Under the pieces are notes generated by a model, which worked only from the letters and a program-made list of their open reading frames with translations, was not told the origin of the DNA and made no database searches. Below, piece after piece: positions 24,165 to 56,907 of a stretch of DNA of 64,000 bases. Position 1 is the first letter of the stretch, and every line of letters begins with the position of its first letter. Origin of the DNA: a virus; the IMG/VR virus record IMGVR_UViG_3300032235_000467, one strand, 5' to 3'. The position numbers and the translations under genes were made by a program.

Positions 24165-27100
24165 ATGGCTACTTGGCTCCAGATAAATCCTCAGGATGGA
24201 AATGCTACATATAATAATGTTACGGTATACAATACGATCGTAGCTAACTCTATTAGTGGTTCTTTTACTGGGTCTTTTAATGAAAATGATCCTATATTTA
24301 CTGAAAAGTCTGCATCATTAGCCACCACAGGCTCTAATATTTTTATCGGTAATCAAACTATCACTGGATCTTTAATATCATCTGGAGCTGTATATTTCCC
24401 AGCAATAACTAATGCCTCTCAATCCGGAATAGTAGTAGTTGACCCAGCAACAGGACAGTTATATTATACTACAGGATCAATTACAGGAGGTGCTTCAGGA
24501 TCAATGGGACCTTCAGGATCTTCTGGTACTAGTGGTACTGCAGGTAGCAGTGGCACATCAGGAACATCTGGTATTACCGGTGATAGGTATTTAACCAGTT
24601 CTACAAGTTCTATAACATTAGGATTAAGTGGTAGTATTACTGTAGGTACAAATTTAGCTTATTCAACGGCCCAGACTGCAATAATAGCATACGATCTCAC
24701 CAATTACCAGGAAGTACCTGTAATATCATATAATCCTTCTACCGGAGTGTTAGTATATGGCACACCAATTACTGTCGTAGGAAGTGGAACATACTCAACT
24801 TGGCAAGTAAACCTATCGGGAGCTAGTGGAGGAGATGGATCCTCTGGAACTTCTGGATCATCAGGTAACAGCGGTACTTCAGGATCCTCAGGAAGTAGTG
24901 GATCTACAGGAACTTCTGGATCTACAGGTACTAGCGGTTCATCTGGCTCTACTGGATCTTCAGGATCTAGCGGTACTTCAGGTACCTCTGGAACTAGTGG
25001 ATCAACTGGTACTTCAGGTTCTACTGGAACTAGCGGAAGTTCAGGTTCTACTGGAACGTCAGGCACTTCTGGGTCAAGCGGTACATCAGGAACAACTGGA
25101 TCATCGGGCAGCGCAGGATCCTCTGGTACTAGCGGTACTGCTGGATCAAGTGGAAGTTCAGGTTCTTCCGGATCTACAGGATCTTCAGGATCTACAGGAA
25201 CAAGTGGCTCTTCAGGTACATCAGGTACTAGTGGCACCTCAGGAACTTCAGGATCTAGTGGATCCTCTGGAAGTGCTGGAACTAGTGGTACAAGCGGATC
25301 TTCTGGATCTACAGGTAGTAGTGGATCTACGGGCACATCTGGATCAACTGGTACATCTGGTAGTACAGGAACTAGCGGAACAGCAGGGTCTTCTGGATCA
25401 ACCGGTTCATCCGGTAGTAGTGGGTCATCCGGTAGTAGCGGTTCTTCGGGTTCTACTGGATCTTCTGGATCAAGTGGTACTGGGTTCAATACTATCAACA
25501 GTCCAGCTATAGGGAGAATTTTATTAGCAGACAACTCAACTAATGCAGCTACTGCATCTGTGAGTATGAGTTTTAATAATGGAATTCTTTTATTAACTGG
25601 AAGTATTATCGCTACAGGTAATATCCAAGCTAATACTCTTATAGTACAGACCATAACTTCTTCAGTAGTATACTCTAGCGGATCTAATATATTTGGTAAT
25701 GCATTAACAAATACCCACCAGTTTACTGGTTCAGTATTAGTAACGGGTTCTTTATCCATAAGAGATTTAGCCTTAAGTAGTAGCGCTACTAGATATGTAG
25801 TATCAGATCTTGATGGTAGATTATTTTATACTACTGCAAGCGCAGCAGGATCCTCAGGAACTGCTGGTACTAGCGGTACTTCTGGCTCCTCAGGTTCTTC
25901 AGGGTCTAGCGGCAGTGCTGGGTCTAGCGGATCCTCAGGAACTGCTGGTACTAGCGGTACTTCTGGTTCAACAGGTTCTTCAGGATCTACAGGTTCATCA
26001 GGTAGTAGCGGTTCTTCCGGTTCAACTGGCTCCTCTGGTTCTAGTGGAACTTCCGGAACAAGTGGCACAGCAGGATCAACTGGCTCATCAGGTAGTTCTG
26101 GTTCTACAGGTACTTCTGGATCAGCTGGTTCATCTGGTAGTAGCGGCTCTTCCGGTAGTAGTGGGTCCTCAGGTAGTACTGGTTCATCTGGTAGTACAGG
26201 AACTAGTGGATCGTCTGGTTCTACAGGATCAAGTGGATCTTCTGGTACAGCTGGTACATCCGGTTCTACAGGTTCATCAGGTTCTAGTGGAACTTCCGGC
26301 ACAGCTGGCACTAGCGGTACAACTGGTACTTCAGGTTCAACAGGAACTAGTGGTTCTACAGGAACTTCAGGATCATCAGGTAGTTCCGGCTCTTCAGGAT
26401 CTTCTGGAAGCACAGGATCATCAGGCACTAGCGGTACAACTGGATCATCTGGTTCATCTGGTTCGACAGGAACTAGTGGCTCGTCAGGTTCTTCAGGTAG
26501 TGCTGGCTCTTCAGGTTCTACAGGAACAAGCGGAACATCTGGTACTGGATTCAATACTATCAATAGCCCAGCTATAGGAAGGATATTATTAGCTGATAAT
26601 AGTACTAATGCTGCAACAGCATCAGTTAGTATGAGCTTTAATAATGGTACTTTATTGATTACAGGAAGTATTACTGCTACAGGTAATATCCAAGCTAATA
26701 CACTAATAGTACAGACTGTATCATCCTCAGTAGTATATTCTAGCGGCTCTAATATATTTGGTAATAACTTATCAAACACCCATCAATTTACCGGAAGTGT
26801 TCAAGTTACAGGTTCAGTATCTATAAAAAACTTAAGCCTTAATTCTGGCTTATCTCAATTTGTAGTGGTAGACCCTGTTACCGGTCAATTGTATTATAAT
26901 AATTCAGGAGCAGCTGGTTCATCAGGCTCTAGCGGATCTTCCGGTACTTCAGGTTCTACAGGAACATCTGGCAGCTCAGGTTCAACTGGTACTTCTGGTT
27001 CTACTGGTACATCCGGTACGTCAGGTTCAACAGGATCTTCTGGATCAACCGGATCCTCCGGCTCATCTGGATCAACTGGCTCTTCTGGTAGCACTGGTAC

Positions 27101-30100
27101 TAGTGGATCATCAGGTACAACCGGATCCTCAGGAACTTCAGGATCTAGCGGTTCTGCAGGATCCTCTGGTTCTACTGGTACATCTGGATCTAGTGGTTCA
27201 ACTGGCTCAAGTGGTAGTACTGGTACAAGTGGTAGCGCAGGATCAAGTGGAAGCAGCGGATCGTCTGGTACATCTGGGTCCTCTGGTTCAACTGGCTCAA
27301 GTGGGTCTTCAGGATCAACAGGAACTAGCGGCTCCTCCGGCTCTTCAGGAAGCTCAGGTACGTCAGGTAGTACAGGTACTAGTGGATCATCAGGTAGCAG
27401 TGGTTCATCTGGATCTAGCGGTAGTACCGGTACAAGTGGTACTGCAGGTACATCAGGTAGTGCAGGTTCAACTGGTACAAGCGGATCTACAGGTACTTCT
27501 GGTTCATCTGGATCAACTGGTACCTCTGGAAGTACAGGGTCCTCTGGTTCAGCTGGTACATCAGGTAGTAGCGGTACAACTGGAACATCCGGATCCTCTG
27601 GTTCAACAGGTACATCAGGTAGTACAGGTACTAGTGGGTCATCAGGTAGTACAGGATCTAGCGGATCTACTGGTTCATCAGGATCAAGCGGATCTTCAGG
27701 TACCACTGGATCTTCTGGAACATCAGGATCTGCAGGTAGATCTGGTGATAGATATTTAACAAGTTCCACAGGATCGGTAACTTTAGGATTAAGTGGATCT
27801 ATTACTGTAGAACCAGGATTGGCGTATTCTACTGCACAGACAGCAATAATATCTTACAATATAAGCAATTATCAGGAAGTACCTGTAGTATCATATAATC
27901 CTTCTACAGGGGTATTAACATACGGTACACCTATTACTGTTGTGGGTTCTGGTACTTATTCAAGCTGGCAAGTAAACTTAGCTGGAGCTAGTGGAGGAGA
28001 TGGATCTTCCGGAACATCTGGTTCATCTGGTTCATCAGGACAGAACGGAAGCTCAGGCACTTCTGGACAGAATGGTTCATCTGGCTCATCAGGATCTACA
28101 GGGACTAGTGGTACATCAGGCACATCTGGTTCTACAGGGACTAGTGGTTCCTCCGGTTCTTCCGGATCAAGCGGCTCTTCTGGAAGTGCAGGCTCTTCAG
28201 GTACTACTGGATCATCCGGCACATCTGGGTCAACTGGTACCTCAGGATCAACAGGAACTAGCGGATCATCTGGCTCTACTGGAACATCAGGTAGTACAGG
28301 TACTAGTGGCACCTCAGGAACTTCAGGTTCTTCAGGCAGTAGCGGATCAAGAGGTAGCTCCGGATCCTCAGGATCAACAGGCACTTCTGGTACATCAGGA
28401 ACAACAGGTACTAGCGGTTCTACTGGTAGCTCAGGTAGTTCAGGATCCACAGGTTCAAGCGGTTCCACAGGAACTTCTGGCAGCTCAGGAAGCACAGGTA
28501 CTAGTGGATCTACTGGAACATCTGGTTCCTCAGGCTCAGCAGGATCCTCTGGTTCGTCTGGTACATCAGGTAGTACAGGAACATCCGGCACTTCTGGTAC
28601 ATCCGGCTCATCAGGATCTACTGGTACATCTGGCTCTACCGGGACATCAGGTAGTACAGGTACATCCGGCTCATCAGGATCTACTGGATCCTCTGGATCT
28701 ACTGGTTCATCTGGGTCAACTGGTACTTCTGGCTCTACTGGTACAAGTGGCAGCAGTGGTTCATCTGGTTCATCAGGGTCTAGTGGCTCATCTGGCTCTA
28801 CTGGTACAAGCGGATCAACAGGAACTTCCGGATCAACAGGAACATCAGGTTCTAGTGGAAGTACGGGTACATCAGGTTCTAGCGGTACTGGATTCAATAC
28901 TATACATACTCCTGCTATAGGAAGAATACTGTTAGCAGATAATAGTACTAACGCAGCTACTGCTTCTGTAAGTATGAGCTTCAATAATGGCGTATTATTG
29001 ATTACAGGTAGCATTACTGCCACTGGAAACATTCAAGCTAATACACTGATAGTACAAACAGTAAGTTCATCAGTAGTATACTCTAGCGGATCTAATATAT
29101 TTGGCAATAGCTTGTCCAATACTCATCAATTTACTGGATCTATACTAGTTACAGGATCTTTATCTATAAAAGATTTAGCCTTAAGTAGTAGCGCTACTAG
29201 ATATGTAGTATCAGACCTTGCTGGTAAATTATTTTATACCACTGCTAGTGCAGCAGGAACTTCAGGTACAACAGGAACTTCAGGAAGTTCTGGATCTTCT
29301 GGAAGCAGTGGCTCAACAGGAACCTCAGGCACCTCTGGTTCTACTGGTACTTCTGGATCTTCTGGTTCAGCAGGTTCATCTGGAAGCAGTGGTTCAACTG
29401 GAACTTCTGGTTCAACAGGCACTAGTGGTTCAACTGGAACTTCTGGAAGCACCGGAACTAGTGGTTCAACAGGATCTTCTGGATCCTCTGGATCAGCAGG
29501 TTCTAGCGGAAGCACGGGTACTAGTGGAACATCAGGTACCTCTGGTTCTTCAGGTAGTGCCGGCTCAAGTGGTTCTACTGGTACATCAGGAAGTACTGGT
29601 ACATCAGGATCTGCAGGATCTTCTGGCTCTTCTGGTTCTACTGGTACATCAGGAAGTACAGGAACTAGCGGTAGTTCTGGTTCAACTGGTACCTCAGGTA
29701 CTTCTGGATCTACCGGTACATCTGGAAGTACGGGAACTTCCGGATCAACAGGAACTTCAGGTACTAGCGGAAGTACTGGTACCTCTGGATCAAGTGGAAC
29801 AGGGTTTAACACTATACATACTCCTGCTATAGGAAGGATATTGTTAGCTGATAACAGCACAAATGCAGCTACTGCATCTGTGAGTATGAGTTTTAATAAT
29901 GGTATTTTGCTTATAACAGGTAGCATTACTGCTACTGGCAATATTCAGGCTAACACCTTAATAGTACAAACAGTAAGTTCTTCAGTCGTATACAGTAGTG
30001 GTAGTAATAGATTTGGAGATGCTTCAAATGATACACATGAATTTACAGGTAGTGTAAAAATAACTGGCTCAATAGCTGTTAGAGACTTAGCTGTAAATGC

Positions 30101-33100
30101 AGGATTAACTAGATTTGTAGTAGTTGATCCAACAACAGGTCAATTATATTATAGAACAAGTGGTGCAGACGGGTCATCAGGCTCTTCAGGAAGCTCAGGT
30201 TCAAGTGGCTCATCAGGCTCTACTGGTACATCTGGTTCTACAGGAACATCAGGTAGTACTGGTACATCTGGAAGTACTGGAACATCAGGTACATCTGGAA
30301 CTAGTGGATCAGCAGGATCCTCTGGATCAGCAGGTTCTAGCGGAAGTACAGGAACTTCAGGTAGTACAGGTACTAGTGGTTCCGCAGGAACTTCAGGTTC
30401 GTCTGGATCAACTGGTACTTCTGGCACTTCTGGTAGTACTGGTTCATCAGGATCTACTGGAACAAGTGGAACTTCAGGATCATCAGGATCAAGAGGATCT
30501 TCTGGTTCCTCCGGTTCTTCCGGATCAAGTGGCTCTTCCGGATCTACAGGATCTTCAGGAAGCACTGGAACTAGCGGTAGTTCTGGATCAACAGGAACTT
30601 CTGGTTCCTCCGGCTCTACTGGTACATCAGGAACCTCCGGTAGCACTGGTTCATCAGGCTCTAGCGGAAGCACTGGTACAAGTGGATCAACCGGTACTTC
30701 AGGTTCATCTGGAAGCACAGGCACTTCAGGAAGTACAGGAACTTCTGGTACATCCGGCTCATCAGGTAGTGCTGGCTCAAGTGGTTCTTCCGGTTCTACT
30801 GGTACCTCTGGATCTACTGGTTCATCAGGTAGTACAGGTACTTCAGGGTCAAGTGGCTCAACAGGTACTAGTGGTTCTACTGGTACATCAGGTAGCACAG
30901 GATCATCTGGTTCAACAGGTACTAGTGGTTCTACAGGAACGTCTGGAAGTACTGGTACTTCTGGATCTACTGGTACTTCTGGTTCAAGTGGTACTGGATT
31001 TAATACTATACATACTCCTGCTATAGGAAGGATATTGTTAGCTGATAACTCAACTAACGCTGCAACAGCGTCAGTTAGTATGAGCTTTAATAATGGAATT
31101 CTATTAGTAACTGGAAGTATTACAGCTACTGGAAACATTCAAGCAAATACTTTAATTGTACAAACAGTAAGCTCATCAGTAATATACAGCAGCGGTAGCA
31201 ATAGATTTGGAGATGCTATAAACGATAGCCATGAATTTACAGGCAGCGTTAAAATATCAGGGTCAATAGCAGTTAAAGATATAACATTAAGTGCCGGATT
31301 AACTAGGTTTTTAGTAGTAGATTCAACAACAGGACAATTTTATTATAGGACAAGTGGTGCAGATGGTTCAGCAGGAAGCAGCGGTTCATCAGGATCTTCT
31401 GGGTCAACTGGCACTTCTGGGTCTAGCGGCTCTACTGGTTCCTCAGGTTCTACAGGTACTAGCGGATCAACAGGTACTTCAGGTAGTACAGGTACTTCAG
31501 GCTCTACTGGTACCTCTGGCTCAAGTGGATCTTCTGGCAGTGCAGGATCTAGCGGCAGTACTGGTACTTCAGGTACAAGTGGATCAACAGGATCTTCTGG
31601 ATCTACTGGAACATCAGGTTCTTCAGGCAGCACAGGTACTTCTGGTTCAACTGGTACTTCAGGTAGTACCGGTACATCAGGAAGCAGTGGGTCAACAGGC
31701 TCCTCCGGTTCTACAGGTACTTCTGGATCTACAGGTACATCAGGTAGCACAGGAACATCTGGCTCAACAGGAACATCAGGTTCCACAGGTACTTCAGGCA
31801 GCACTGGTACCTCTGGCTCCACAGGAACTTCTGGTAGTACAGGAACTTCTGGTAGTACAGGAACTTCCGGCTCAACTGGTACCTCTGGGTCTAGTGGACA
31901 AACTGGAGCAGCAGGATCATCTGGAACTAGCGGAACAGGGTTTAACACCGTTGTAAACTGGACTAATAATAGAGTACTTACATCATATACATCCGCTAAT
32001 GATGCATATGCAGAAAATAACTTAACTTTTGATGGTTCTTTATTGTATGTAAATGGACAGCAGGGCATAGGAACAGCATCACCAGGGTCTTACAAACTCA
32101 GTGTAGTTCAAGCAGCATCAGCAAATGCTGTAAACATTACAAGGGTATCAGGGTATGCAAACATATACGGTACTAATGATCTAGTATTAGAAACAGACAG
32201 TACTTTCTATATGGGTGCTTATACAGCAAGGCCTATATACTTTAACTCTGCTAATGGTGCTTCTGGTACTGTTTATATCGCTTCTGACGGAAAGGTTGGT
32301 ATAGGCACTACATCACCAACAGAAAAGTTACATGTTGTAGGGGGTCAGACATCAGCCATGTTTGTGGGGTCTGCAACTGGGTATACCCAAGGAGCTATAA
32401 TACTAAGTAGTGGAACTGCCGATTCTCCAGGTGCTAGGGGACAAGGTGTGTTCTTATTTAACGAGGGTACTGATACAACATGGTATGTGGGATCTCCATA
32501 TACTCAAGGAGATGCCTTTATAATAGCTAGAAAAGCATCAACAACATCGTATGATCCTGCAGTGGCTCAATATGCAAATGCTTTAATAACTATTGATAAT
32601 GCTGGTAAGGTTGGTATAGGGACTGATTCCCCAGGGTATAAACTAGACGTATCAGGAAATGCCAGAGTAACCGGAGAGTTAGTAGTAGCTAAAAGCGGAA
32701 CAGATTCATTAATTACATTCCCAGCTCAAACAAATGACCCTGGATTTATAAAACACTATGAATCATCCAACACGGCAGTAATGTATTTCTCTGTGTCTGA
32801 TGACGATAATATCACTGGCGATTATTTTGCATTTGGTGCCGGAGGGACATATAGAACTATTATATATACCAATGGAAGAATAGATGCTGCTATATTATAT
32901 GATTATAATAACACAGGATATTATTTAGACCCAGCTAGTACATCTAATTTGAATGTTGTTAGAACCCAACAAGTATTAACTCCAAATCATTCATTATCTT
33001 CTGTTTATGGTAGTTTTAATACTACTACTACAAATGGTTATTTAATAACTACCAATATTAGTTACAATGTTTTCAATATGCCTACGGTCATTATTGAAGG

Positions 33101-35261: not shown

Positions 35262-35262
35262 T

Positions 35263-35604: not shown

Positions 35605-35613
35605 AAAATAACT

Positions 35614-36192: not shown

Positions 36193-36206
36193 TAAATAAT
36201 AATAAA

Positions 36207-37037: not shown

Positions 37038-37049
37038 AAAATAAAAAAT

Positions 37050-37226: not shown

Positions 37227-37235
37227 TAAAAATAA

Positions 37236-37255: not shown

Positions 37256-37266
37256 AATAAATTGTC

Positions 37267-42882: not shown

Positions 42883-42944
42883 ATATACGCCTATATAGGC
42901 CAGCGAAAGCTGCGTGTAAATACACTTAGAGACTCATACATATG
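42883..42944 (+). promoter_or_regulatory. Structured 5' leader of the 1879-aa fibre gene
   Basis: Consecutive hairpins GCC-TATATA-GGC, CAGC-GAAA-GCTG, GTG-TAAATA-CAC and CA-TACATA-TG; the last includes the start codon. Confidence 0.55.
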
Positions 42945-45900: not shown

Positions 45901-48581
45901 TAGTACAGACAATTACTTCCTCAGTAGAATTCGTAACTGGTTCTACACACTTTGGTACAATTATTCAGAATACTCACGAGTTTACAGGTTCTTTAAGTAT
46001 TTCTGGATCTTTAACTATAAATGGAACATCCTACACTGCTGCTACTTCTGGAACATCAGGTACCAGCGGTACAGCAGGATCATCTGGTTCATCAGGTAGT
46101 ACAGGCACATCAGGAACCTCTGGTTCTAGTGGATCTTCTGGTAGTTCTGGTTCCACTGGAACAAGTGGCACATCAGGATCTAGCGGCAGCTCAGGGTCTT
46201 CTGGTAGCACAGGAACTTCCGGAACAACAGGTACTAGCGGAAGCTCAGGATCCTCTGGAAGTACTGGAACTAGTGGTAGCTCCGGTACAAGCGGAACTTC
46301 TGGGTCTAGCGGCAGCTCAGGATCAACAGGTTCGTCAGGATCTTCAGGGACTGCTGGATCTAGTGGATCCTCTGGTACCTCTGGATCAACTGGGTCTTCT
46401 GGCTCATCTGGATCAACTGGAACTAGTGGGTCTAGCGGTAGCTCTGGTTCATCAGGTTCTACAGGAACCTCTGGTTCAACAGGAACTAGTGGATCCTCTG
46501 GTAGCTCTGGATCAACTGGTACATCCGGGACTAGTGGTTCATCAGGTTCATCTGGAAGTTCCGGTTCAACAGGCACTTCAGGTACATCAGGTAGTAGTGG
46601 TAGCGCAGGATCATCTGGTTCAACAGGCACTAGCGGTACATCTGGTTCCTCTGGTACTAGTGGAAGTGCAGGTTCATCAGGATCTACTGGAACAAGTGGA
46701 ACCTCAGGTACGTCCGGGTCTTCTGGTAGCACAGGATCCAGCGGATCATCAGGAAGCTCAGGCTCCTCTGGATCTACAGGATCTTCAGGTAGTACAGGAA
46801 CCTCAGGTACATCTGGCACATCTGGCACTAGCGGATCCTCTGGTACAGGATTTACAACTATAAACAGTCCTGCACAAGGAAGAGTGTTAGTATCAGACGG
46901 ATCTGTAAATGCAGCTACAGCATCAGCAGTATTATTAGTAAATAATGGAGCGGTAGCAATATCCGGAAGTACTATTATAACAGGATCTCTTACTGTAACA
47001 AATACTATAAGCGCTCTTACTTTAGTAGTTCAAACCATATCGTCTTCAGTAGAATTTGTAACAGGTTCTACTAAGTTCGGATCTATACCATCTAACACAC
47101 ATCAATTTACAGGATCAGTAAGTATTACTGGCTCCTTGATAATAAACGGTACATCCTACACTGCAGCTACTTCCGGAACTTCTGGAACATCTGGCTCAAC
47201 CGGAACTAGTGGATCTTCAGGCACATCCGGTTCTACTGGTACCTCTGGCTCAACAGGAAGTAGTGGCTCAAGTGGTTCTAGTGGTTCAAGTGGATCTTCT
47301 GGTAGTACAGGTACTAGCGGTTCTACTGGTAGCTCAGGCTCTTCTGGTAGCACTGGTAGTAGTGGTAGTACTGGAACAAGTGGATCATCAGGGTCTAGTG
47401 GTTCTTCAGGATCATCTGGCTCTACTGGAACAAGCGGTTCTACGGGAACTAGTGGATCAAGCGGTAGTACTGGCTCTTCTGGCAGCAGTGGGTCTACTGG
47501 CACATCTGGTTCTAGCGGAACAAGTGGAAGTAGCGGTTCATCAGGAAGTACCGGATCTTCTGGCTCAACAGGAAGTAGCGGTTCTAGTGGTTCAAGCGGA
47601 TCTACAGGAACATCTGGCTCAACAGGAACTTCAGGGTCTAGCGGTTCTTCTGGATCAACCGGTACCTCAGGATCAACTGGTACAAGTGGATCTTCAGGTA
47701 GTACAGGAACTAGCGGTACCTCAGGCACATCTGGTTCATCTGGATCATCTGGATCATCAGGTACTAGCGGATCTAGTGGCAGTTCTGGTAGCACAGGAAC
47801 ATCTGGCTCAACAGGAACTAGTGGATCTTCTGGTAGTTCTGGCTCTACTGGATCATCAGGAACTAGTGGATCAAGCGGTACAGGGTTTAATACCATAAGC
47901 AATGCTGGTATTGGTAGAGTTGTAGTATCTGACGGAACTGTCAATGCGGCCACAGCATCAGCTATCTTAACTGTTAATAACGGAGCGGTAAGTATGTCTG
48001 GCAGTGCATTCATAACTGGATCACTGACAGTATCAAATACAATAACTGCACAGACTTTAATAGTACAAACCGTAAGTTCAAGTGTAGTTTTTTCCAGTGG
48101 ATCAAACGTATTTGGAAACAGCTTATCTAATACACATCAGTTTACTGGTAGTGTAACCATAACTGGTAGCTTATCTGTAAATAACAGTAGCGTAGTGCTG
48201 TCTAATCAGACAGGATCAATGTCTGTTTTAACAGCATCACATGCTTTGACAGGAAGCAATCCATTTATAATAGGCAATAGTCAGTTTAACACTACAGGAT
48301 CAGCCACAGCAAATGGAACTACAGCTGTATCTCAGATACCTACAGGATCATACACATCTGCATTCTATAGATATACGCTAGCCTCAGCCTCTAATGCTAG
48401 GGCAGGAGAAGTGATATCTGTATGGAGTGGCTCTGTGGTAAGATTTAGTGAATTCACAACTACGGATATAGGAAACACATCAACAGCTGTATTCTCAGTA
48501 ACTATAAGTTCTGGTAACGTTGTATTGAATCTATCTTCTTCTGGGGGTTGGAATGTAAAATCTATTGCAAATTTATTATAA
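42942..48581 (+). CDS. Large fibre protein with Gly-Ser/Thr triplet tracts
   Basis: 1879 aa; N-terminal LKLRRS...GEVAMNTADGKLF fibre-attachment-like motif; three SSDIVA...MGI repeats; three G-S/T-S/T tracts with shared spacer modules. Confidence 0.8.
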   Translation: MAQILKLRRSAISGAKPTISQIEFGEVAMNTADGKLFMKVSGSGGDSVIEIGANSGNVSGSLYYVPVFTGVNSVGTSSIYQSGSFTSIRKTTVPVNPTNPDILFVNGEGVNTYNLISAHSNLNSYVQVNVQNYSSGAFASSDIVATANDGTETTKYINMGINSSQYTSPDFIGSAGDAYLYSTGNDLYIGNAIPNKRVIIFNGGFDAFVHSKVFIHEQGTIGINTDTIDYDYPSSLRVFAANTSSFNLIYAQANVNNYSQINIKNISSGEEASSDIVATADDGDEEQGYINMGINSSQFQKPNTIGNPRDGYLYSTGNDLCIGNAVPNKQVIIFNGGFDVVENARLWVHSQGTVSINTDQYNVNNPPSLVVYAPNTTTNTLIEGVGQSNQFLQLAIANQSSGSFASSDIVAYNDIDPTNQGVGFIDMGISSTTFNDPTNYPGWEPGESYVYTDAAGMTIGTTADSSEIHIFAGGINPVENTKLLIRSNNQHELTGSLNISGSLVVNNGITGSLFGTASWALNAITASYITASNVYGPYGQNSVISASHAVTASSADDFLVRGTLTAQTIIVQTITSSVEFVTGSTHFGTIIQNTHEFTGSLSISGSLVINGTSYTAATSGTSGTSGTSGSSGTSGTSGSSGSTGTSGSSGSTGTSGSAGTSGSSGSSGSSGTSGTSGTSGSSGSTGTSGSSGSSGSTGSSGTSGTSGSSGSTGTSGTSGSSGSSGSTGSSGTSGTSGSSGSSGFSGSSGSSGSSGSTGTSGTSGTSGTSGSSGSTGTSGTSGSSGTSGTSGSSGSSGSSGLSGTSGSSGTSGSSGSTGTSGTSGSSGSSGSTGSSGTSGSSGTSGSTGTSGTSGSTGTSGSSGSSGSSGTSGTSGSSGSSGSSGSTGSSGSSGSSGSSGSTGTSGTSGTSGSSGSSGSSGTAGSSGTGFTTINSPAVGRVLLSDGSVNAATASSAIVYNGGGLSISGSTTITGSLTVSNTITAQTLIVQTITSSVEFVTGSTHFGTIIQNTHEFTGSLSISGSLTINGTSYTAATSGTSGTSGTAGSSGSSGSTGTSGTSGSSGSSGSSGSTGTSGTSGSSGSSGSSGSTGTSGTTGTSGSSGSSGSTGTSGSSGTSGTSGSSGSSGSTGSSGSSGTAGSSGSSGTSGSTGSSGSSGSTGTSGSSGSSGSSGSTGTSGSTGTSGSSGSSGSTGTSGTSGSSGSSGSSGSTGTSGTSGSSGSAGSSGSTGTSGTSGSSGTSGSAGSSGSTGTSGTSGTSGSSGSTGSSGSSGSSGSSGSTGSSGSTGTSGTSGTSGTSGSSGTGFTTINSPAQGRVLVSDGSVNAATASAVLLVNNGAVAISGSTIITGSLTVTNTISALTLVVQTISSSVEFVTGSTKFGSIPSNTHQFTGSVSITGSLIINGTSYTAATSGTSGTSGSTGTSGSSGTSGSTGTSGSTGSSGSSGSSGSSGSSGSTGTSGSTGSSGSSGSTGSSGSTGTSGSSGSSGSSGSSGSTGTSGSTGTSGSSGSTGSSGSSGSTGTSGSSGTSGSSGSSGSTGSSGSTGSSGSSGSSGSTGTSGSTGTSGSSGSSGSTGTSGSTGTSGSSGSTGTSGTSGTSGSSGSSGSSGTSGSSGSSGSTGTSGSTGTSGSSGSSGSTGSSGTSGSSGTGFNTISNAGIGRVVVSDGTVNAATASAILTVNNGAVSMSGSAFITGSLTVSNTITAQTLIVQTVSSSVVFSSGSNVFGNSLSNTHQFTGSVTITGSLSVNNSSVVLSNQTGSMSVLTASHALTGSNPFIIGNSQFNTTGSATANGTTAVSQIPTGSYTSAFYRYTLASASNARAGEVISVWSGSVVRFSEFTTTDIGNTSTAVFSVTISSGNVVLNLSSSGGWNVKSIANLL

Positions 48582-49387
48582 TGCCAATAACTTTTTTAAA
48601 TAGAAATAACTCAGGAAATCTATCACTTATCAATAGAAGTAACAGCGGTAGACTAAGTATGACAGTAGGAACTTCTATTGTAACAGCAGGATTAGTATTA
48701 AATTTAGATGCTGGTAATCCATCTTCTTATCCTGGTAGTGGAACTACTTGGACAGATTTAACCGTAAATGGGTTCAATGCTTCTATGACCGGTAGCGTTA
48801 GTTATAATAATACACCTCCTCAATATTTTGACTATGCTAATCTTCCAAATTATTTTGTTGGTAATAATAATCTTACTTCTGTAATAAGCACTGCTATAAC
48901 AATTACATCTTGGATAAATGTACGTAATATAGCATCAAGAAGTGTTGTGTTTGATAAATACCAAACACCAACTCTCCCTGCTGGGTATGTTCTTGAAGTA
49001 GGAACAGTCTCCTCCCTTTGGACTAATACAGTAAGATTTTTTGCAGTAGGTTCTACTGGAGATGGTTGGGACCCTAGAGGAGTAAGTAATGCTATACAAG
49101 AGAATGTCCCATGTATGGTATCAGTAACATTAGATCGTACTGCACAACAATCTTCATTGTATGTAAATGGTTCAAGTATATCATATACACAAGGTGGAGG
49201 CCCTATTACTAATTTAGCTTCTAATTGGGCTACAGGAACTAATGTATATACTTTGGGGTCATATCGACCTGACTCTGCTATAGACTCAAACATGTATCAG
49301 TATAATCTATTAATATATAATAGAGCTTTATCCGCATCTGAAATCCTACAAAACTATAATGCACAAAAATCAAAATTTGGGTTATAA
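48581..49387 (+). CDS. LamG / concanavalin A-like lectin-domain virion protein
   Basis: GLVLNLDAGNPSSYPGSGTTWTDL...LYVNG...IYNRALSASEILQNYNA; TAATG-coupled start at 48581. Confidence 0.8.
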   Translation: MPITFLNRNNSGNLSLINRSNSGRLSMTVGTSIVTAGLVLNLDAGNPSSYPGSGTTWTDLTVNGFNASMTGSVSYNNTPPQYFDYANLPNYFVGNNNLTSVISTAITITSWINVRNIASRSVVFDKYQTPTLPAGYVLEVGTVSSLWTNTVRFFAVGSTGDGWDPRGVSNAIQENVPCMVSVTLDRTAQQSSLYVNGSSISYTQGGGPITNLASNWATGTNVYTLGSYRPDSAIDSNMYQYNLLIYNRALSASEILQNYNAQKSKFGL

Positions 49388-49450: not shown

Positions 49451-52207
49451 ATGCCAAACGAGTTCAAAGTTAAGAATGGCCTGATTGTAGACCAAGGAGG
49501 AGCCAATATAACAGGTTCTTCTGCTATATCAGGATCTTTAGACATTGCTGGCAGCGTAACTGCGACTAACTTTACCGGATCTTTATTTGGTACAGCAAGT
49601 TGGGCTGCAAATTTTAAGGAAACAGACCCAGTATTTTCATCCAAGTCAGCTAGTTTAGCCACTACAGGATCTAATTCATTTTTTGGAGATCAATATATAA
49701 CAGGATCTTTAAACCTGTCATCTAGTGGAATCCACTATATAAGTGGACTGGTAACAGCTTCAAGTACTATTCATGTAAACGTAACACAGCCTGTCCTAGC
49801 TTTAGATACAAGAGGTAGAATACTGTACTCTAACTTCTTCTCAACTACTGCAAGTTTACCGGATCCTAACTTGTACCATGGTATGTTTACCCATGTACAT
49901 AATGAAGGATCAGCATATTATTCACACGGGTCTAATGGTTGGGTAAGATTATGGGACAGATTTAACAGTCCTAATTTAATTAGCGGATCACAAGTACCAG
50001 CTAATATAGTAGGACAAGCAATTGCTCCTCTAAGCGTAAGCGCATCTTCTTTTGTAAGTGCTAGTGAATTTTTTGGTAGCGGTAGCGGAATAGTAGGAGT
50101 CATATCATCTTCATATTCAGTAACAGCATCCAATGGACTGTTATTTAATAGCACATCCTCAGAAAGATTTGCAACCACAGGATCTAACACATTTATAGGA
50201 AATCAAATAGTAACTGGTAGTTTATACACTAGCGGGTCTAATAGATTAGTAGGGCCTACAGAATTAACAGGTTCTTTAGGAATATCTGGTAGCCAGATTA
50301 TAAAAGGGTATGTGCAATTCATGCCTGTTACTACAAACATAGACACATCAATAACTGCATCTTATATCTATGTATCAGGTTCTACTAATGATTTGTATTT
50401 CTCTCAAAACGGTGATGGGTATAATAACGTAACTCGTTTACGTTGGTTAGAAGGCAACTTATATACAGGATTATTACATGGAGGTTTAATTACAGCTGCT
50501 ACAGGATCTACTATATATCAAGTTAGTAGCGGTAGTGGTATAATTGTTAATATAAATGCAAGCTTAACTGCCAATCCATACCCTACTATTAAATATGTAA
50601 ACTGGGGTAATTTAACAGCTAGTATTGCACCACTTACTGCATCATATCAACAAGCATTTGTATCTATTGATTCGAATGGTAGTATTTACCAACAAGGCAT
50701 ACCATACGCTTCCGAACAATTTGATACATCAATTAACATAGGAGTTGTATTATTTCAAAACGGATCTACAATTAATGGTGTTAAAACACAACCATCCACA
50801 GCATATGGTTTTGAACAACAACAAAATATATTTAATAGGGCATTTGGACCTTTAAAATTATCAGGGTATACTTTAGCACCTAGTGGTTCTTCAACACGCA
50901 GTTTAATAGTAGCAGGTGGTACAGCTTACTCACCTGGTTCTAACTATTCTGTAGATCCAAATAATCCATCCTACACTACTGATAGTGGAACTAATGTATC
51001 TAAAATATTCAGATATAGACAATCAGGTTCTACTTGGGTATATGATACAAATGCAGGTGCAGGTTATACAACAATTGATCCAACACAATATTCAAACAAT
51101 GGTGTATTAACAGCAGTACCAGGAGGAGGATCAAATAGAGAATTTTCTATTCAAAGAGTATTTTATTTCCCTAATAGTGTAGCTAAAGCTATAGTCGTTT
51201 ATTATGGTAATGCTACATACGCAAGTCTAACAGATGCAACATCAAATATTTCTTTTGAACCGTTTGTTGAAGCACCAAATACTGCAGCAAACGCAATTTA
51301 TTTAGGGGCAATTATTGTAAGAAATAACGCTGATTTTACAGTTACTGACTCATATGCTATTCAGACAGCAGGTCTATTTAGGTCAGTAGGAGGATCAGGA
51401 GGCGGAGGATCGGTAGTAACTCAAACTTTATCAGGACTTTCTGATGTAAATATATCAGGACCAACAAATGGACAACCATTAGTTTATGATTCGACTGCTG
51501 CTAAATGGGAAAATAAATCAACACTAACAGCAACATTAATAGGTAATGCTAGCACAGCTACAACTGCATCTTACGCATTAATAGCTAAAAGTATAGAAGG
51601 CATTATAACTAGCGCTTCTTATGCATTAACGGCTTCTTATGTACTTAATGCTATAAGTGCATCATATTCTGCTACTGCATCATATGTACTAAACTCTATA
51701 AGTTCTTCATACGCTGCTACTGCATCTTTTGTAGCCACTGCATCAAACGCAATATCTTCTTCATATGCAGTAACAGCAAGTTATGTAGCAACCCTAAATA
51801 AAAAAGTAAGAACTACTATTCCAATAACAGCAGTACAAGGACAGACTACCCTTATAACAAACATACCTGCATTAGTGGATGAAGTAGGAACTGAATTAAG
51901 AATTAGGGAAAATCTATTAAATGCCGTATCTTGCAGTATGTCTGCTAGGGTTGAACAAGCTACTGGTGGTGCTATTGGTCATTTAAAGATTCAATATTCA
52001 ACAGATGAATCTACTTGGAATGATCTTAATGCAAATAAAGTAGATCTAGGAACAGTCGGGACTCAATTAACAACAGAAGAAGCAATTCCATCTGGAGCAA
52101 AGACAACCGGTACTTATATAAGATTAGTAACAATAAGTGGAGATGGTACGGCAGCTAGTAATGCCAGATTTGGAAATGTAACTTTAAATATAATTTACGA
52201 TATATAA
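49451..52207 (+). CDS. Ser/Thr-rich fibre / virion structural protein
   Basis: 918 aa; ETDPVF and LATTGSNxFxG motifs shared with the N-terminus of the 3698-aa fibre; TASY/SSSYA repeats; LSGLSDVNI...NGQPLVYD...KWEN motif. Confidence 0.7.
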   Translation: MPNEFKVKNGLIVDQGGANITGSSAISGSLDIAGSVTATNFTGSLFGTASWAANFKETDPVFSSKSASLATTGSNSFFGDQYITGSLNLSSSGIHYISGLVTASSTIHVNVTQPVLALDTRGRILYSNFFSTTASLPDPNLYHGMFTHVHNEGSAYYSHGSNGWVRLWDRFNSPNLISGSQVPANIVGQAIAPLSVSASSFVSASEFFGSGSGIVGVISSSYSVTASNGLLFNSTSSERFATTGSNTFIGNQIVTGSLYTSGSNRLVGPTELTGSLGISGSQIIKGYVQFMPVTTNIDTSITASYIYVSGSTNDLYFSQNGDGYNNVTRLRWLEGNLYTGLLHGGLITAATGSTIYQVSSGSGIIVNINASLTANPYPTIKYVNWGNLTASIAPLTASYQQAFVSIDSNGSIYQQGIPYASEQFDTSINIGVVLFQNGSTINGVKTQPSTAYGFEQQQNIFNRAFGPLKLSGYTLAPSGSSTRSLIVAGGTAYSPGSNYSVDPNNPSYTTDSGTNVSKIFRYRQSGSTWVYDTNAGAGYTTIDPTQYSNNGVLTAVPGGGSNREFSIQRVFYFPNSVAKAIVVYYGNATYASLTDATSNISFEPFVEAPNTAANAIYLGAIIVRNNADFTVTDSYAIQTAGLFRSVGGSGGGGSVVTQTLSGLSDVNISGPTNGQPLVYDSTAAKWENKSTLTATLIGNASTATTASYALIAKSIEGIITSASYALTASYVLNAISASYSATASYVLNSISSSYAATASFVATASNAISSSYAVTASYVATLNKKVRTTIPITAVQGQTTLITNIPALVDEVGTELRIRENLLNAVSCSMSARVEQATGGAIGHLKIQYSTDESTWNDLNANKVDLGTVGTQLTTEEAIPSGAKTTGTYIRLVTISGDGTAASNARFGNVTLNIIYDI

Positions 52208-55200
52208 TGCCAAAGTATACTATATTTTCAAATATTATAAGTGGTAGCAGTGCAGCTATAACATCTATTACTGGATCGTTATTAGGTAATGCATCTACTG
52301 CAACTACTGCATCTCATGCACTGACAGCTTCTTCTGCGGATAATTTTACTGTAAGAGGAACACTGACAGCACAAACTATAGTAGCTCAGACCATTACATC
52401 GTCTACCGATTTTGTTACTGGATCTACTAGATTTGGTAGCGTCGCTTCAAATACACATCAATTTACCGGCTCAGTAAGTATAACAGGATCTCTTACTATA
52501 AACGGAACATCTTATACTGCTGCTACATCCGGAACAAGCGGTACTTCAGGAACCGCAGGATCGTCCGGTAGCTCAGGATCTACAGGTACATCTGGTACTG
52601 CAGGTTCTAGCGGGTCTTCCGGCAGCACAGGTAGTAGCGGAACATCAGGCACTGCCGGTACAACGGGTACTAGCGGTACCTCTGGTTCATCTGGATCTAG
52701 CGGATCTTCAGGATCTACAGGAACATCTGGCTCAACTGGTACCTCAGGTACATCAGGAAGTTCTGGATCCTCCGGATCAACTGGCTCATCAGGAACTTCA
52801 GGTACTTCTGGAAGCAGTGGATCTTCTGGTTCTACTGGTACTTCTGGATCAACTGGTTCTTCCGGCTCGGCGGGAAGTAGCGGTACTTCTGGATCAACTG
52901 GAACATCTGGTTCTACTGGAACTAGCGGAAGTTCAGGATCCTCTGGATCTACAGGCACCAGTGGTACTTCAGGTTCTACAGGAACTAGCGGATCATCAGG
53001 TTCTTCGGGTACCAGCGGTACTTCTGGATCTACTGGTACATCAGGAAGCACAGGAACATCTGGCTCAACAGGAACATCAGGATCTAGTGGGTCATCTGGT
53101 TCTTCAGGGTCGTCTGGATCATCTGGTACAGGTTTCACCACAATAAATAACCCTGCTATAGGAAGGGTATTGCTTGCTGATAACTCAACAAATGCAGCAA
53201 CAGCTTCCGCAGTATTAACTATAAACAATGGAAACGTAGTTGTTTCTGGTAGCACTGTTATAACAGGCTCCTTAACTGTAACTAATACTATTAATGCGCT
53301 AACATTAGTAGTACAAACTATATCTTCCTCAGTAGAATTTGTTACAGGGTCTACTAAATTTGGTAGTATAATATCAAATACACATCAATTTACAGGTTCT
53401 GTAAGTATATCAGGATCTTTATCTTTAAATGGAACATCTTTTGCTGCAGCCACTTCAGGAACTTCAGGAACTAGTGGTATAAATGGTACTAGTGGCTCTT
53501 CTGGAAGCTCTGGTTCTAGTGGAACATCTGGCTCAACTGGTACATCAGGTACTTCTGGTAGCAGCGGTTCTACAGGAACGTCAGGATCTAGTGGCACTTC
53601 AGGAGTTAATGGTACATCTGGTTCAAGTGGAACTAGTGGGTCTACCGGCTCTTCAGGTTCATCTGGTAGTACAGGTACTAGCGGATCAACAGGAACTTCT
53701 GGTTCTACAGGTACATCTGGCTCAACTGGAACTAGCGGTAGCTCCGGATCTTCAGGTTCTACTGGAACTTCTGGAACCTCAGGATCTACTGGAACTAGTG
53801 GGTCTTCTGGTAGCACAGGAACAAGTGGCTCTAGTGGTACTTCTGGAGCAAACGGTTCTTCAGGAACTTCAGGAACTAGCGGTACATCTGGCTCTAGTGG
53901 TACGAGTGGTGTAAATGGTAGTTCTGGTACATCTGGTAGCACAGGCACTTCAGGATCTTCTGGATCATCAGGATCATCTGGATCTACCGGTACATCAGGA
54001 AGCTCTGGCTCAACTGGATCATCTGGTAGTAGTGGATCTACGGGATCCAGTGGTACTGCAGGTACTTCTGGTACTAGCGGACAAACAGGATCTTCTGGTT
54101 CAAGTGGTTCTTCCGGCACTAGCGGGACCTCAGGTACATCAGGAACTTCTGGAACTTCTGGTAGTTCAGGGTCTACAGGTACATCAGGCTCTAGTGGTTC
54201 AACAGGATCATCTGGAAGTAGCGGTAGTACAGGTACATCGGGCAGCAGTGGTACTTCAGGTACTAGTGGAACATCCGGTTCATCTGGTACAGGATTCAAT
54301 ACAATAAATAATCCTGCTATAGGAAGAGTCCTCATAGCAGATGCTTCAACTAATTCAGCTACAGCTTCAGCAATATTAACCGTTAACAACGGAGCTGTTA
54401 GCATGTCAGGCAGTACATTTATTACTGGATCATTAACAGTAACTAATACTATTAATGCTTTAACATTAGTTGTACAGACTATATCATCTTCAATAGAATT
54501 TGTAACTGGATCTACTAGATTTGGTAGTACAATTTCTAACAATCATGAGTTTACCGGTAGTGTTAGAATTAGCGGATCTTTATTTATAAACGGTACATCA
54601 TACACTGCCGCTACTTCTGGAACTAGTGGTACTACAGGAACATCAGGAAGTTCTGGATCCTCAGGTAGTTCTGGTTCAACTGGAACTAGTGGCACAGCAG
54701 GAACGGCTGGTACTACAGGAACATCAGGAACAGCAGGATCTTCTGGAAGTGCAGGCTCATCTGGCTCTACAGGTACCAGCGGATCTACAGGTACTTCAGG
54801 ATCTTCTGGTTCTTCAGGAACTACTGGAACATCAGGTAGTACAGGTACTAGTGGTTCTAGTGGTACTTCTGGAGCAAACGGTTCTTCAGGAACTTCTGGA
54901 ACTTCAGGAAGCTCTGGCTCAACTGGTTCTTCTGGTTCTTCTGGTTCTTCTGGTTCTTCTGGTTCTACAGGTACTTCTGGTACTTCAGGTACCGCAGGAA
55001 GCTCTGGATCTTCTGGCTCATCAGGAAATACAGGCTCTTCTGGAAGTAGTGGTTCTACAGGTACTTCGGGGTCTAGTGGTTCAACAGGAACTAGCGGCAC
55101 AGCAGGAACCTCAGGATCTAGTGGATCCTCTGGATCAACTGGAACATCTGGTTCAACTGGTACTTCAGGCACCTCTGGATCAACTGGTTCTTCTGGTACA

Positions 55201-56907
55201 TCTGGTTCTACTGGTACATCAGGTACTAGTGGTTCATCTGGAACAGGATTTAATACTATCAATAGCCCTGCTATCGGTAGAGTCCTTATAGCAGATGCCT
55301 CAACTAACGCTGCAACTGCTTCAGTTATACTAACTGTCAATAATGGCGCAGTTAGTGTATCTGGAAGTACAATTATCACTGGATCTTTAACAGTGACTAA
55401 TACGATAAATGCTTTAACATTAGTAGTACAAACTATAAGCTCTTCTGTAGAGTTTGTAACAGGGTCAACTAGGTTTGGCAGCACTATATCCAATAACCAT
55501 GAATTTACAGGCAGCTTAAGAATTAGCGGATCTTTATTCATAAACGGAACATCCTATACTGCTGCCACATCAGGAACTAGTGGAACATCAGGCAGCTCCG
55601 GAACTTCAGGATCTACTGGTTCATCTGGTAGTTCAGGAACTAGCGGAACTTCTGGTTCTACCGGTACTAGCGGTTCAACAGGAACTTCTGGAACATCAGG
55701 AACTACAGGATCTTCTGGTTCTACAGGTTCATCTGGATCTTCTGGATCTACAGGGTCAAGTGGATCCTCAGGTAGTACAGGAACTTCTGGAACTAGTGGC
55801 ACTTCAGGAACTACAGGTTCGTCTGGATCTTCCGGTAGCACAGGTTCTAGTGGATCTACAGGCACAAGTGGATCTACTGGAACATCAGGTAGTACAGGTA
55901 GTTCAGGCTCTACTGGCTCATCAGGGTCTACCGGAACATCAGGAACTTCTGGTAGTACTGGATCCTCTGGATCAACTGGTACTTCCGGTAGCACAGGTAC
56001 TAGCGGTTCAACAGGAACTTCAGGCTCGTCTGGAACAGGATTCAATACAATAAACAGTCCTGCTATAGGAAGAGTTTTAATAGCAGATGCCACAAATAAT
56101 GCAGCTACTGCATCGGCAATACTTACTGTAAATAATGGAGCCGTTAGTGTCTCAGGTAGTACAATTATAACAGGATCTTTAAGTATATCTGGTAGTAGTG
56201 GGACTACTTTATTTTCTTCAAACGTAGACACGTTAATATTAACAGGATCTGCTATAGTAACAGGATCTGTTATTGTAACTGGATCAGTATCTATAAACAA
56301 TCTAACTCTTAACTCAGGATTAACTAGATTTGTAGTAGTTGATCCAACAACAGGACAGTTATTTTATAATACATCAGGAGGTGGAGCAGGGTCCGCTGGT
56401 TCATCAGGATCCTCAGGTTCTAGCGGATCAAGCGGTTCTTCTGGATCTTCTGGTTCTACAGGGTCAAGTGGATCCTCAGGTACAACAGGATCTTCTGGAT
56501 CTTCAGGAACATCAGGATTATCTAGTTTATCTCTAACAGTAGCTGATGGAGGTGTTATACAAGGCACAGGCATTACCTATTTAGAATTTGCTACTAATAT
56601 ATCGGCAACTGTAACCAATACAACAGCGTCTATTAGTGCAACTGGTGGAGGCGGTGGTGGAGGACTAGCTACAAAAGCTGGATCAATAGCCAATAGTTCT
56701 TTCACTGGTAACCCTAAGAAGTCCACAGTAACCTTTGCAGCAGCATTTACAGATGCAAACTATGCAGTGGCGGTAACTGGAGAAGATGCTAGATCATGGA
56801 CTATAGAAAGTAAAGCAGCAGGAAGCTTTATAATAAACGCAAATAGTAATGCCGGATTAGCAGGAAGTACTAATTGGGTGGCAGTTAAACATGGAGAAAC
56901 AGCCTAA
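52207..56907 (+). CDS. Large fibre protein with Gly-Ser/Thr triplet tracts
   Basis: 1566 aa; four long and one short G-S/T-S/T tracts; four GTGF.TIN.PAIGRVL modules; C-terminal VTFAAAFTDANYAVAVT beta domain. Confidence 0.8.
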   Translation: MPKYTIFSNIISGSSAAITSITGSLLGNASTATTASHALTASSADNFTVRGTLTAQTIVAQTITSSTDFVTGSTRFGSVASNTHQFTGSVSITGSLTINGTSYTAATSGTSGTSGTAGSSGSSGSTGTSGTAGSSGSSGSTGSSGTSGTAGTTGTSGTSGSSGSSGSSGSTGTSGSTGTSGTSGSSGSSGSTGSSGTSGTSGSSGSSGSTGTSGSTGSSGSAGSSGTSGSTGTSGSTGTSGSSGSSGSTGTSGTSGSTGTSGSSGSSGTSGTSGSTGTSGSTGTSGSTGTSGSSGSSGSSGSSGSSGTGFTTINNPAIGRVLLADNSTNAATASAVLTINNGNVVVSGSTVITGSLTVTNTINALTLVVQTISSSVEFVTGSTKFGSIISNTHQFTGSVSISGSLSLNGTSFAAATSGTSGTSGINGTSGSSGSSGSSGTSGSTGTSGTSGSSGSTGTSGSSGTSGVNGTSGSSGTSGSTGSSGSSGSTGTSGSTGTSGSTGTSGSTGTSGSSGSSGSTGTSGTSGSTGTSGSSGSTGTSGSSGTSGANGSSGTSGTSGTSGSSGTSGVNGSSGTSGSTGTSGSSGSSGSSGSTGTSGSSGSTGSSGSSGSTGSSGTAGTSGTSGQTGSSGSSGSSGTSGTSGTSGTSGTSGSSGSTGTSGSSGSTGSSGSSGSTGTSGSSGTSGTSGTSGSSGTGFNTINNPAIGRVLIADASTNSATASAILTVNNGAVSMSGSTFITGSLTVTNTINALTLVVQTISSSIEFVTGSTRFGSTISNNHEFTGSVRISGSLFINGTSYTAATSGTSGTTGTSGSSGSSGSSGSTGTSGTAGTAGTTGTSGTAGSSGSAGSSGSTGTSGSTGTSGSSGSSGTTGTSGSTGTSGSSGTSGANGSSGTSGTSGSSGSTGSSGSSGSSGSSGSTGTSGTSGTAGSSGSSGSSGNTGSSGSSGSTGTSGSSGSTGTSGTAGTSGSSGSSGSTGTSGSTGTSGTSGSTGSSGTSGSTGTSGTSGSSGTGFNTINSPAIGRVLIADASTNAATASVILTVNNGAVSVSGSTIITGSLTVTNTINALTLVVQTISSSVEFVTGSTRFGSTISNNHEFTGSLRISGSLFINGTSYTAATSGTSGTSGSSGTSGSTGSSGSSGTSGTSGSTGTSGSTGTSGTSGTTGSSGSTGSSGSSGSTGSSGSSGSTGTSGTSGTSGTTGSSGSSGSTGSSGSTGTSGSTGTSGSTGSSGSTGSSGSTGTSGTSGSTGSSGSTGTSGSTGTSGSTGTSGSSGTGFNTINSPAIGRVLIADATNNAATASAILTVNNGAVSVSGSTIITGSLSISGSSGTTLFSSNVDTLILTGSAIVTGSVIVTGSVSINNLTLNSGLTRFVVVDPTTGQLFYNTSGGGAGSAGSSGSSGSSGSSGSSGSSGSTGSSGSSGTTGSSGSSGTSGLSSLSLTVADGGVIQGTGITYLEFATNISATVTNTTASISATGGGGGGGLATKAGSIANSSFTGNPKKSTVTFAAAFTDANYAVAVTGEDARSWTIESKAAGSFIINANSNAGLAGSTNWVAVKHGETA

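Follow-up and report, generated by a model that had tools for sequence, protein, structure and literature searches.

The window, a 64,000-nucleotide stretch of the viral record IMGVR_UViG_3300032235_000467 (IMG/VR), carries among its structural genes three giant fibre proteins (F1, F2 and F3) with long Gly-(Ser/Thr)-(Ser/Thr) tracts, and between the first two of them a cassette of three genes for glycosyltransferase (GT) and FkbM-type methyltransferase domains (37267-42858). The reading we prefer, at a probability of about 0.68, is that fibres and cassette form a late-expressed module for the O-glycosylation of the virion fibres. The TibC/Aah-type (BAHT) domain of enzyme 3 would place the first sugar onto Ser/Thr hydroxyls of the tracts in the cytoplasm of the infected cell, two GT4 domains and a GT-A enzyme would extend the glycan, two FkbM domains would O-methylate it, and the dense glycan would let the tracts form, or stay as, a stiff, soluble and protease-resistant triple helix. 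The tracts as acceptor, the order of the enzymes, the identities of the sugars, the methylation of the glycan and its structural role are what we infer from the evidence set out below.

An earlier note, made from the letters of the window, had described a three-gene cassette with about four GT and two FkbM-like domains, lying inside the virion fibre module, flanked by three giant proteins with tracts about two-thirds Ser/Thr and by a Pro-Thr linker protein, and had proposed that the phage encodes both writers and substrates. The domain content is borne out by profile searches and, for enzyme 2, by an AlphaFold2 model; the giant tract proteins and the linker protein are there as described; and capsid genes upstream and the tail sheath downstream confirm the setting. 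The pairing of writers and substrates is supported by co-occurrence across genomes, tested in both directions and with exceptions both ways.

Collagen-like tracts of the fibre proteins

All coordinates given for the window are on the + strand, where all its sizeable genes lie. F1 (3698 residues, 24165..35261) matches the Pfam Collagen profile in 24 stretches (E 4e-218) and consists of seven Gly-(Ser/Thr)-(Ser/Thr) blocks of 181-295 residues (567 triplets) followed by a non-repeat C-terminal part of about 1000 residues. Close to its end lies a Peptidase_S74 intramolecular chaperone (residues 3586-3646, 34920..35102; PF13884, E 1.8e-11, 44.6 bits against a cut-off of 22), a domain typical of trimeric phage fibres. 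F2 (1879 residues, 42942..48581; Collagen E 5e-109) has an N-terminal domain of about 600 residues, then three blocks (268 triplets) and the same spacer module as F1, and F3 (1566 residues, 52207..56907; Collagen E 9e-120) has five blocks with 293 triplets; no trimerisation or registration domain comparable to the Peptidase_S74 of F1 was detected in F2 or F3. Counted over the three proteins, the strict Gly-X-Y triplets number 1128 and fall into 15 blocks of 45-307 residues, 14 of which are at least 154 residues long, and the blocks are separated by a repeated, Ser/Thr-rich spacer module of about 120 residues and of beta type. With the textbook collagen figure of a 0.286 nm rise for each residue, the tracts, if fully triple-helical, would add up to about 0.49, 0.23 and 0.25 micrometre in F1, F2 and F3 respectively. 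The antisense and out-of-frame open reading frames over the fibre genes are by-products of the period-3 repeat.

The Gly-X-Y runs are long and uninterrupted, as in the collagen repeat family (PF01391), and the usual stabilisers of a collagen, proline or hydroxyproline and Lys-Gly-Asp/Glu salt bridges, are lacking from them: X is Ser or Thr in 97.9% and Y in 94.2% of triplets, and the 2256 X and Y positions hold one Pro and nine charged residues. Mucin-like, disordered tracts were considered as the first choice and rejected on the strict period of three, the Collagen profile and the S74 chaperone, and so the mucin-like coat of the earlier note gives way to a collagen-like Gly-X-Y substrate that is practically free of proline and charge. 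Because the tracts are without proline and charged pairs a glycan is probably needed for the helix to form or to be stable, and glycosylation as a requirement of this kind, beyond a mere coat, is plausible. Salt-bridge triplets are a general rule, with KGD (Lys-Gly-Asp) making up 13% of viral collagen triplets, and Ac-(Gly-Pro-Thr)10 forms a random coil which becomes triple-helical once its Thr residues carry galactose (PMC11923368).

The TibC/Aah-type enzyme and its sugar

Enzyme 3 (40777-42858) is a fusion of an N-terminal GT4 domain (residues 1 to about 310, 40777..41706; PF13692 E 1.8e-8, PF00534 E 3.3e-8, 33.7 bits against 26.4) with a C-terminal BAHT domain (residues 350-691, 41824..42849). 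The TibC/Aah signature that had been noticed in it before holds up, with a match to TIGR04414 (hepto_Aah_TibC) of 270.3 bits (E 2.5e-80) against a curated NCBIfam cut-off of 200, and an alignment to TibC of PDB 4RAP over TibC residues 37-385 (E 2e-49). The roles of the TibC residues were defined in the TibC structure paper (PMC4358343). Of these the catalytic base Asp-110 corresponds to D421 of enzyme 3, the sugar-binding Trp-305 to W612, and the iron-finger Cys-339, Cys-342, Cys-358 and Cys-370 to C647, C650, C664 and C676, all invariant across a set of 42 distinct homologues from phages; of the two phosphate-binding residues, Lys-230 corresponds to K541 and is likewise invariant, and Thr-226 corresponds to T537 and is either Thr or Ser in the same 42. 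Its score and its catalytic and iron-finger residues mark the C-terminal domain, as judged from its sequence, as a genuine member of the BAHT family.

The donor sugar is a separate matter. Arg-286 of TibC, which contacts N1 of the adenine, explains the ADP specificity and is needed for activity (PMC4358343), is V593 in enzyme 3, so that the mark of ADP-sugar specificity is absent. At this position Arg is found in 30 of 30 autotransporter-linked enzymes, the clade of the window's enzyme has R/T/V/A/I/L, and over half the enzymes that come from phages or are linked to repeats have V/T/A/I/L, a replacement that points to a switch of nucleotide-sugar donor inside the BAHT family. Pro-300 of TibC is S607, and Ser is also what Aah has there. 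A search of five BAHT-positive records of related phages, of which two belong to the window's clade, found neither gmhA (SIS_2) nor a complete heptose pathway; a PfkB kinase is present in one of the five (G030, whose enzyme keeps the Arg) and a cytidylyltransferase-like match, away from the cassette, in three. With Val for Arg-286, and with no gmhA or complete pathway in those records, the heptose that the earlier note had connected with the TibC/Aah signature is not supported for enzyme 3, though it may yet be the sugar.

The cassette could instead remodel the lipopolysaccharide (LPS) or capsule of the host, for superinfection exclusion or for release, with the fibre region acting as an accessory-gene hot spot. 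Glycosyltransferases in the fibre clusters of aquatic myophages, in the host-recognition clusters of pelagimyophages, have been read in this way as modifiers of the host O-antigen (PMC7029224), LPS synthesis commonly employs GT4, GT-A and GT9-like folds, and enzyme 3 weakly matches RfaQ and RfaC. These LPS heptosyltransferase matches are however of about 20 bits, against cut-offs of 185-467, when the protein-specific TIGR04414 is passed and the BAHT-specific iron finger is intact, and host remodelling would leave unexplained the two-way link with Ser/Thr Gly-X-Y genes in phages and bacteria described below. We regard it as improbable as an account of the cassette; the accessory GT4 and GT-A domains may act on host glycans.

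Enzymes 1 and 2

The three genes of the cassette overlap or abut. Enzyme 1 (897 residues, 37267..39960) is made up of a GT4 domain (about 1-345; PF00534 E 7e-17, 61.9 bits against a gathering score of 26.4), a first FkbM domain (about 361-541), a segment of about 150 residues without assignment and a second FkbM domain (695-874), FkbM (TIGR01444/PF05050) scoring 146.8 bits against a cut-off of 37.7 in two stretches. Orthologues of enzyme 1 in relatives are 59-76% identical in the GT4 part. Strings of the form E-x7-E, candidates for the GT4 family motif, occur at residues 268 and 322 of enzyme 1 and at residue 262 of enzyme 3.

Enzyme 2 (275 residues, 39963..40790) has no family match in Pfam, NCBIfam or PHROG, and none of its 193 homologues is annotated. 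Its AlphaFold2 model (pLDDT 94.4) has as top Foldseek matches the GT6 alpha-1,3-galactosyltransferase and the ABO transferases (E 5e-9, TM about 0.5), and the D86-T-D88 motif is invariant in its two Asp residues across 32 sequences. On the model, enzyme 2 is a GT-A fold glycosyltransferase (GT6/GT8-like) without membership of a sequence family.

The same domains recur as single chains in relatives: FkbM, GT-A, GT4 and BAHT in a protein of 1458 residues (G031), GT25-like, GT4, BAHT and FkbM in one of 1527 residues (L029), and, in Microcystis phage Mel-JY01, GT4 and BAHT at opposite ends of a protein of 1226 residues. These fusions support priming, extension and methylation as one pathway on one substrate. 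In the complete relative G001, whose cassette is larger than the window's, the enzyme 1 orthologue (L012 3499-6828) is a chain of 1110 residues with GT4, FkbM, GT2 and a rhamnosyl O-methyltransferase-family domain (RMNT_CmcI), the last of which fits a methylation of the glycan.

Modification of the phage DNA, commonly known as a role of phage glycosyltransferases, would be another use for such enzymes. The cassette lies in the late structural module, one of its domains belongs to a protein-specific family, and no similarity to a DNA glucosyltransferase was found in any library searched; on these grounds DNA glycosylation was rejected and we think it most implausible, as had already been argued in the earlier note from the position of the genes.

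Co-occurrence of enzyme and repeats in phages

Relatives of enzyme 3 are encoded at 67 viral loci, and in the close relatives the cassette is kept in the structural module, often adjoining the sheath gene. Ser/Thr-type Gly-X-Y genes lie within 10 kb at 14 of the 67 loci, and where they do not adjoin the enzyme, searches of whole records found such genes elsewhere in the genome, as in G001 (183 kb), with X/Y 77-86% Ser/Thr. All of the BAHT-positive G001, G003, G004, G014, G015, G018, G019 and Mel-JY01 have Gly-X-Y genes with X/Y 77-98% Ser/Thr. The enzyme-free relatives by capsid protein (G005-G013 and the immuto phage) have no collagen-like gene or an ordinary collagen rich in Pro, Lys and Gln, the one exception among these controls being G012, a fragment ending inside a fibre gene.

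The association was also approached from the repeats, by scanning viral contigs for a DNA pattern of seven GGN-WSN-WSN triplets. Among the matches listed (63 viral records), 22 have a TIGR04414 match, as do six of the nine listed records that are at least 90% complete, against a background, by tblastn, of BAHT domains in 4 of 50,697 phage genome records. Enzyme gene and giant Ser/Thr Gly-X-Y gene are no more than 5 kb apart in G030 (299 kb), G033 (249 kb), G035 (548 kb), G031, LR756501 (735 kb) and Mel-JY01, and the capsid protein of G030 is 32% identical to that of the window. In Mel-JY01 the collagen-like Ser/Thr gene is about 1.7 kb upstream of the GT4 and BAHT protein.

This Mel-JY01 gene (L078, PP395634.1, 2-3052 on the + strand) encodes 1016 residues of collagen-like Gly-Ser/Thr-Ser/Thr type from the very start of the record, and is probably truncated at the point where the record was linearised. 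The deposited annotation has two minus-strand hypothetical proteins there, at 1-651 and 739-2298.

Coincidence would mean that the fibres carry no glycan and that the tracts are flexible disordered spacers or self-sufficient helices. G002, G029 and the small complete phages that have tracts and no enzyme speak for this. The enrichment over background is nevertheless very large, and the adjacency recurs at a capsid identity of 32% and in bacterial chromosomes with housekeeping neighbours, so that coincidence seems to us very unlikely. Overall the association of enzyme and repeats is supported in both directions, across distant phage lineages and bacteria, without being universal.

Bacterial relatives and the acceptor

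Scanning bacterial genomes with the single protein found no relatives; with an alignment, at least 547 were found. A maximum-likelihood tree of 136 distinct BAHT domains, with neighbours scored within 5 kb, falls into three groups. The bacteria-only clade (48 leaves, support 100) has a Ser/Thr Gly-X-Y neighbour in 0 of 26 scorable loci, and in four of five loci checked (L340, L329, L321 and L314) an AIDA-type autotransporter, a member of the known class of substrates, adjoins the enzyme gene, as in the classical pairing of enzyme and substrate. The window's clade (72 leaves) mixes phage and bacterial enzymes and holds all 29 repeat-positive loci, out of 49 scorable; 16 of the 29 are bacterial. 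The third clade is viral (L044-L062). The labels cluster on the tree, with 17 changes, a value reached by 1 of 300 shuffles, against a shuffle mean of 24.

The bacterial carriers are Methylococcales and other Gammaproteobacteria, Burkholderiaceae and Pseudobdellovibrionaceae, with the TibC-like gene standing alone (not fused). Its partners, which are small and either secreted proteins or lipoproteins, carry tracts of (Gly-Thr-Ser)n or (Gly-Ser-Ser)n. Such pairs were found with housekeeping genes as neighbours in L282 (9959-12026) and L300 (8473-11842), and also in L272, L277, L286, L288, L295, L297 and L302. On a Methylococcales chromosome lgt, thyA, ppa and an alkaline phosphatase gene surround the pair, which with such neighbours is not a prophage.

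The virion proteins might also be glycosylated at other sites, the acceptor being the beta spacer modules, the Thr-Pro linker protein or further structural proteins. The known acceptors of TibC are serines in beta-helix repeats (PMC4358343), the spacers are Ser/Thr-rich and repeated and so come closer to the strand-loop-strand sites of TibA, and the cassette of L043 adjoins a Ser/Thr-rich protein of 2011 residues without long Gly-X-Y tracts. What argues for the tracts is that the bacterial partners are without spacer modules and have only the Gly-(Ser/Thr)-(Ser/Thr) tract in common with the phage fibres, which is the best available argument for the tract itself as the acceptor. Pfam moreover finds no AIDA repeat in the fibres, and a scan of 30 window proteins gave neither an AIDA nor an Autotransporter domain. 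An acceptor outside the tracts is thus unlikely in our view, if the least unlikely of the alternatives considered here.

Several observations weigh against the tracts as substrate of the cassette, or against the strength of the association. That triplets of Ser and Thr only would form a triple helix is itself predicted, and enzyme 3 has Val in place of Arg-286. The well-supported third clade, 35-36% identical to the window's enzyme, has no Ser/Thr Gly-X-Y gene within 5 kb. In G001, the closest complete relative, some 20 kb or more separate the fibres from the cassette. The enzyme occurs in G002 (85% complete) with no collagen-like match and in LR756504 without the repeats, and G029 (84% complete) and three small phages with complete genomes show the repeat pattern but lack the enzyme. 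Most of the viral records are fragments, relatedness among them is only partly controlled, and the 63 pattern-picked records are not a random sample.

A wider proposal would be that of a glycan-dependent class of collagen, whose Ser/Thr-only tracts become triple-helical only once densely O-glycosylated, served by a dedicated ring-forming BAHT clade that switched its acceptor from the beta-helices of autotransporters to collagen-like repeats, and in part its donor. The pair of enzyme and substrate would be widespread, both among large aquatic phages, where it would build virion fibres of sub-micrometre length, and among secreted proteins and lipoproteins of bacteria. We put this forward tentatively, as possible though on the doubtful side.

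Genomic setting and transcription

The window is the structural module of a large, uncultured myovirus and has 34% G+C. Upstream of the fibre region are the large terminase (7982-9565), portal (9609-11465), prohead protease (16269-16877), gp23-like major capsid protein (18082-19713) and head-tail adaptor (20512-21735), with a weak gp15-like protein (22615-23874) directly before the fibre region, and downstream is the tail sheath (from 61841). By capsid protein the nearest cultured phages are Flavobacterium phage vB_FspM_immuto (55% identity) and Microcystis phage Mel-JY01 (50%), and a blastn search of the cassette DNA against the 50,697 phage records gave short, weak matches only. Two head-module proteins, of 808 residues (751-3177) and 1046 residues (13117-16257), have no Pfam or PHROGs match.

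F1 and the cassette are separated by small genes: a DUF7936 protein of 113 residues (35263..35604; PF25590, E 1e-18) with orthologues after the fibre gene in L002, L003 and L021, a protein of 192 residues without family match (35614..36192) that is also present in the relative L003, and the Cys-rich linker protein (36117..37037) with (Thr-Pro)n at residues 43-56 and 127-150, which likely starts at Met31, near 36207. A reading frame of 59 residues (37051-37227) lies between the linker protein and the cassette. F2 and F3 are separated by a LamG/concanavalin-like lectin-fold protein of 279 residues (48548..49387) and a structural protein of 918 residues (49451..52207) with a weak C-terminal discoidin (F5/8 type C) match (E 5.6e-5, under the Pfam cut-off), the two being candidate carbohydrate-binding parts for receptor recognition; LamG paralogues are multiplied in the relatives L001, L005, L029 and L034. 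F3 is followed by a tail-fibre-like protein of 322 residues with a Gly_rich_2 match (56910..57878).

A motif ATATTTATA, also given as (A)TATTTATA, stands 11-64 nucleotides upstream of 11 structural gene starts, those of all fibre transcription units included (copies at 723, 4027, 6328, 9573, 11469, 19774, 20487, 24121, 42878, 49410 and 57885). The form (A)TATTTATA has 19 matches on both strands of the window, against about 10 expected and with 0 of 100 shuffles reaching 19, and is probably a late promoter element of the phage. The cassette is without a copy of its own and sits between two copies, no terminator-like site was seen on the + strand between F1 and the cassette, and scans of 23800-43000 for sigma-70 promoters and terminators gave neither above shuffled controls. 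The stretch 24165-42858, bracketed by motif copies, is likely to be one late unit, from F1 to enzyme 3. The Bacteroidota-type −7 promoter motif TAnnTTTG was tried as a clue to the host and is not enriched (79 matches, 70 expected).

Relation to known systems and implications

The nearest characterised counterparts are the TibC-TibA and Aah-AIDA-I pairs of E. coli (PDB 4RAP/4RB4), to which enzyme 3 is homologous over the TibC residues aligned above and with the same key residues, and like them it would act in the cytoplasm, on numerous Ser/Thr residues in a long, repetitive protein whose gene lies close by. Unlike them it is phage-encoded, fused to a GT4 domain and accompanied by further glycosyltransferases and methyltransferases, its partner is a Gly-(Ser/Thr)-(Ser/Thr) collagen-like fibre rather than a beta-helical autotransporter, it belongs to a different clade from the autotransporter-linked enzymes, and with Val for Arg-286 its donor may not be ADP-heptose. 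The GtfA/GtfB accessory Sec system, with which the earlier note had drawn a parallel, is an analogy only, in that a GT4-fold enzyme there primes dense Ser/Thr repeats in the cytoplasm ahead of assembly. Membership was rejected, TIGR02918 scoring 15.6 bits where 574.6 are required; genes for accessory Sec were not seen, and the repeat architecture differs.

To our knowledge phage-encoded glycosylation of virions has so far been documented mainly in mycobacteriophages, where Freeman et al. in 2023 reportedly described it for capsid and tail tube. Among other viruses, A064R of chlorovirus PBCV-1 is a GT-GT-methyltransferase protein and mimivirus L230 acts on the collagen-like L71 (PMC9614988). 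In all of these, as proposed for the window, virus-encoded multidomain enzymes with glycosyltransferase and methyltransferase parts serve the virus's own structural proteins, the target in mimivirus being collagen-like as well. The enzyme families, linkage chemistry and substrates nonetheless differ, with N-glycans in PBCV-1 and Glc on hydroxylysine in mimivirus, and none of the three systems has the BAHT-type enzyme or the Ser/Thr-only triplets that the window has. Passages of PMC11923368 relate that BclA of the Bacillus anthracis exosporium and the cuticle collagen of Riftia carry glycosylated Thr in Gly-X-Thr triplets, and that a Thr-linked sugar can stand in for hydroxyproline as a helix stabiliser. 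These too are O-glycosylated collagen-like repeats on a surface filament, as predicted for the window, with repeats that are Gly-Pro-Thr or keep their proline, unlike tracts with Ser/Thr at both X and Y, and with unrelated enzymes.

No paper in the literature searched links BAHT enzymes with phages or with collagen-like proteins, and none describes the Mel-JY01 system. What the window would add is a BAHT-type protein glycosylation with a new class of acceptor, in the context of a virion. If this is true, many large phages, freshwater, marine and cyanobacterial, make collagen-like fibres that are very long and coated with sugar, and the BAHT family has a second, so far unrecognised class of substrate, in bacteria as well. 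It would also mean a natural collagen stabilised by glycans on Ser and Thr rather than by proline or salt bridges, which bears on the folding rules of collagens and on biomaterials. With Microcystis phage Mel-JY01 as a cultured carrier, the hypothesis is directly testable.

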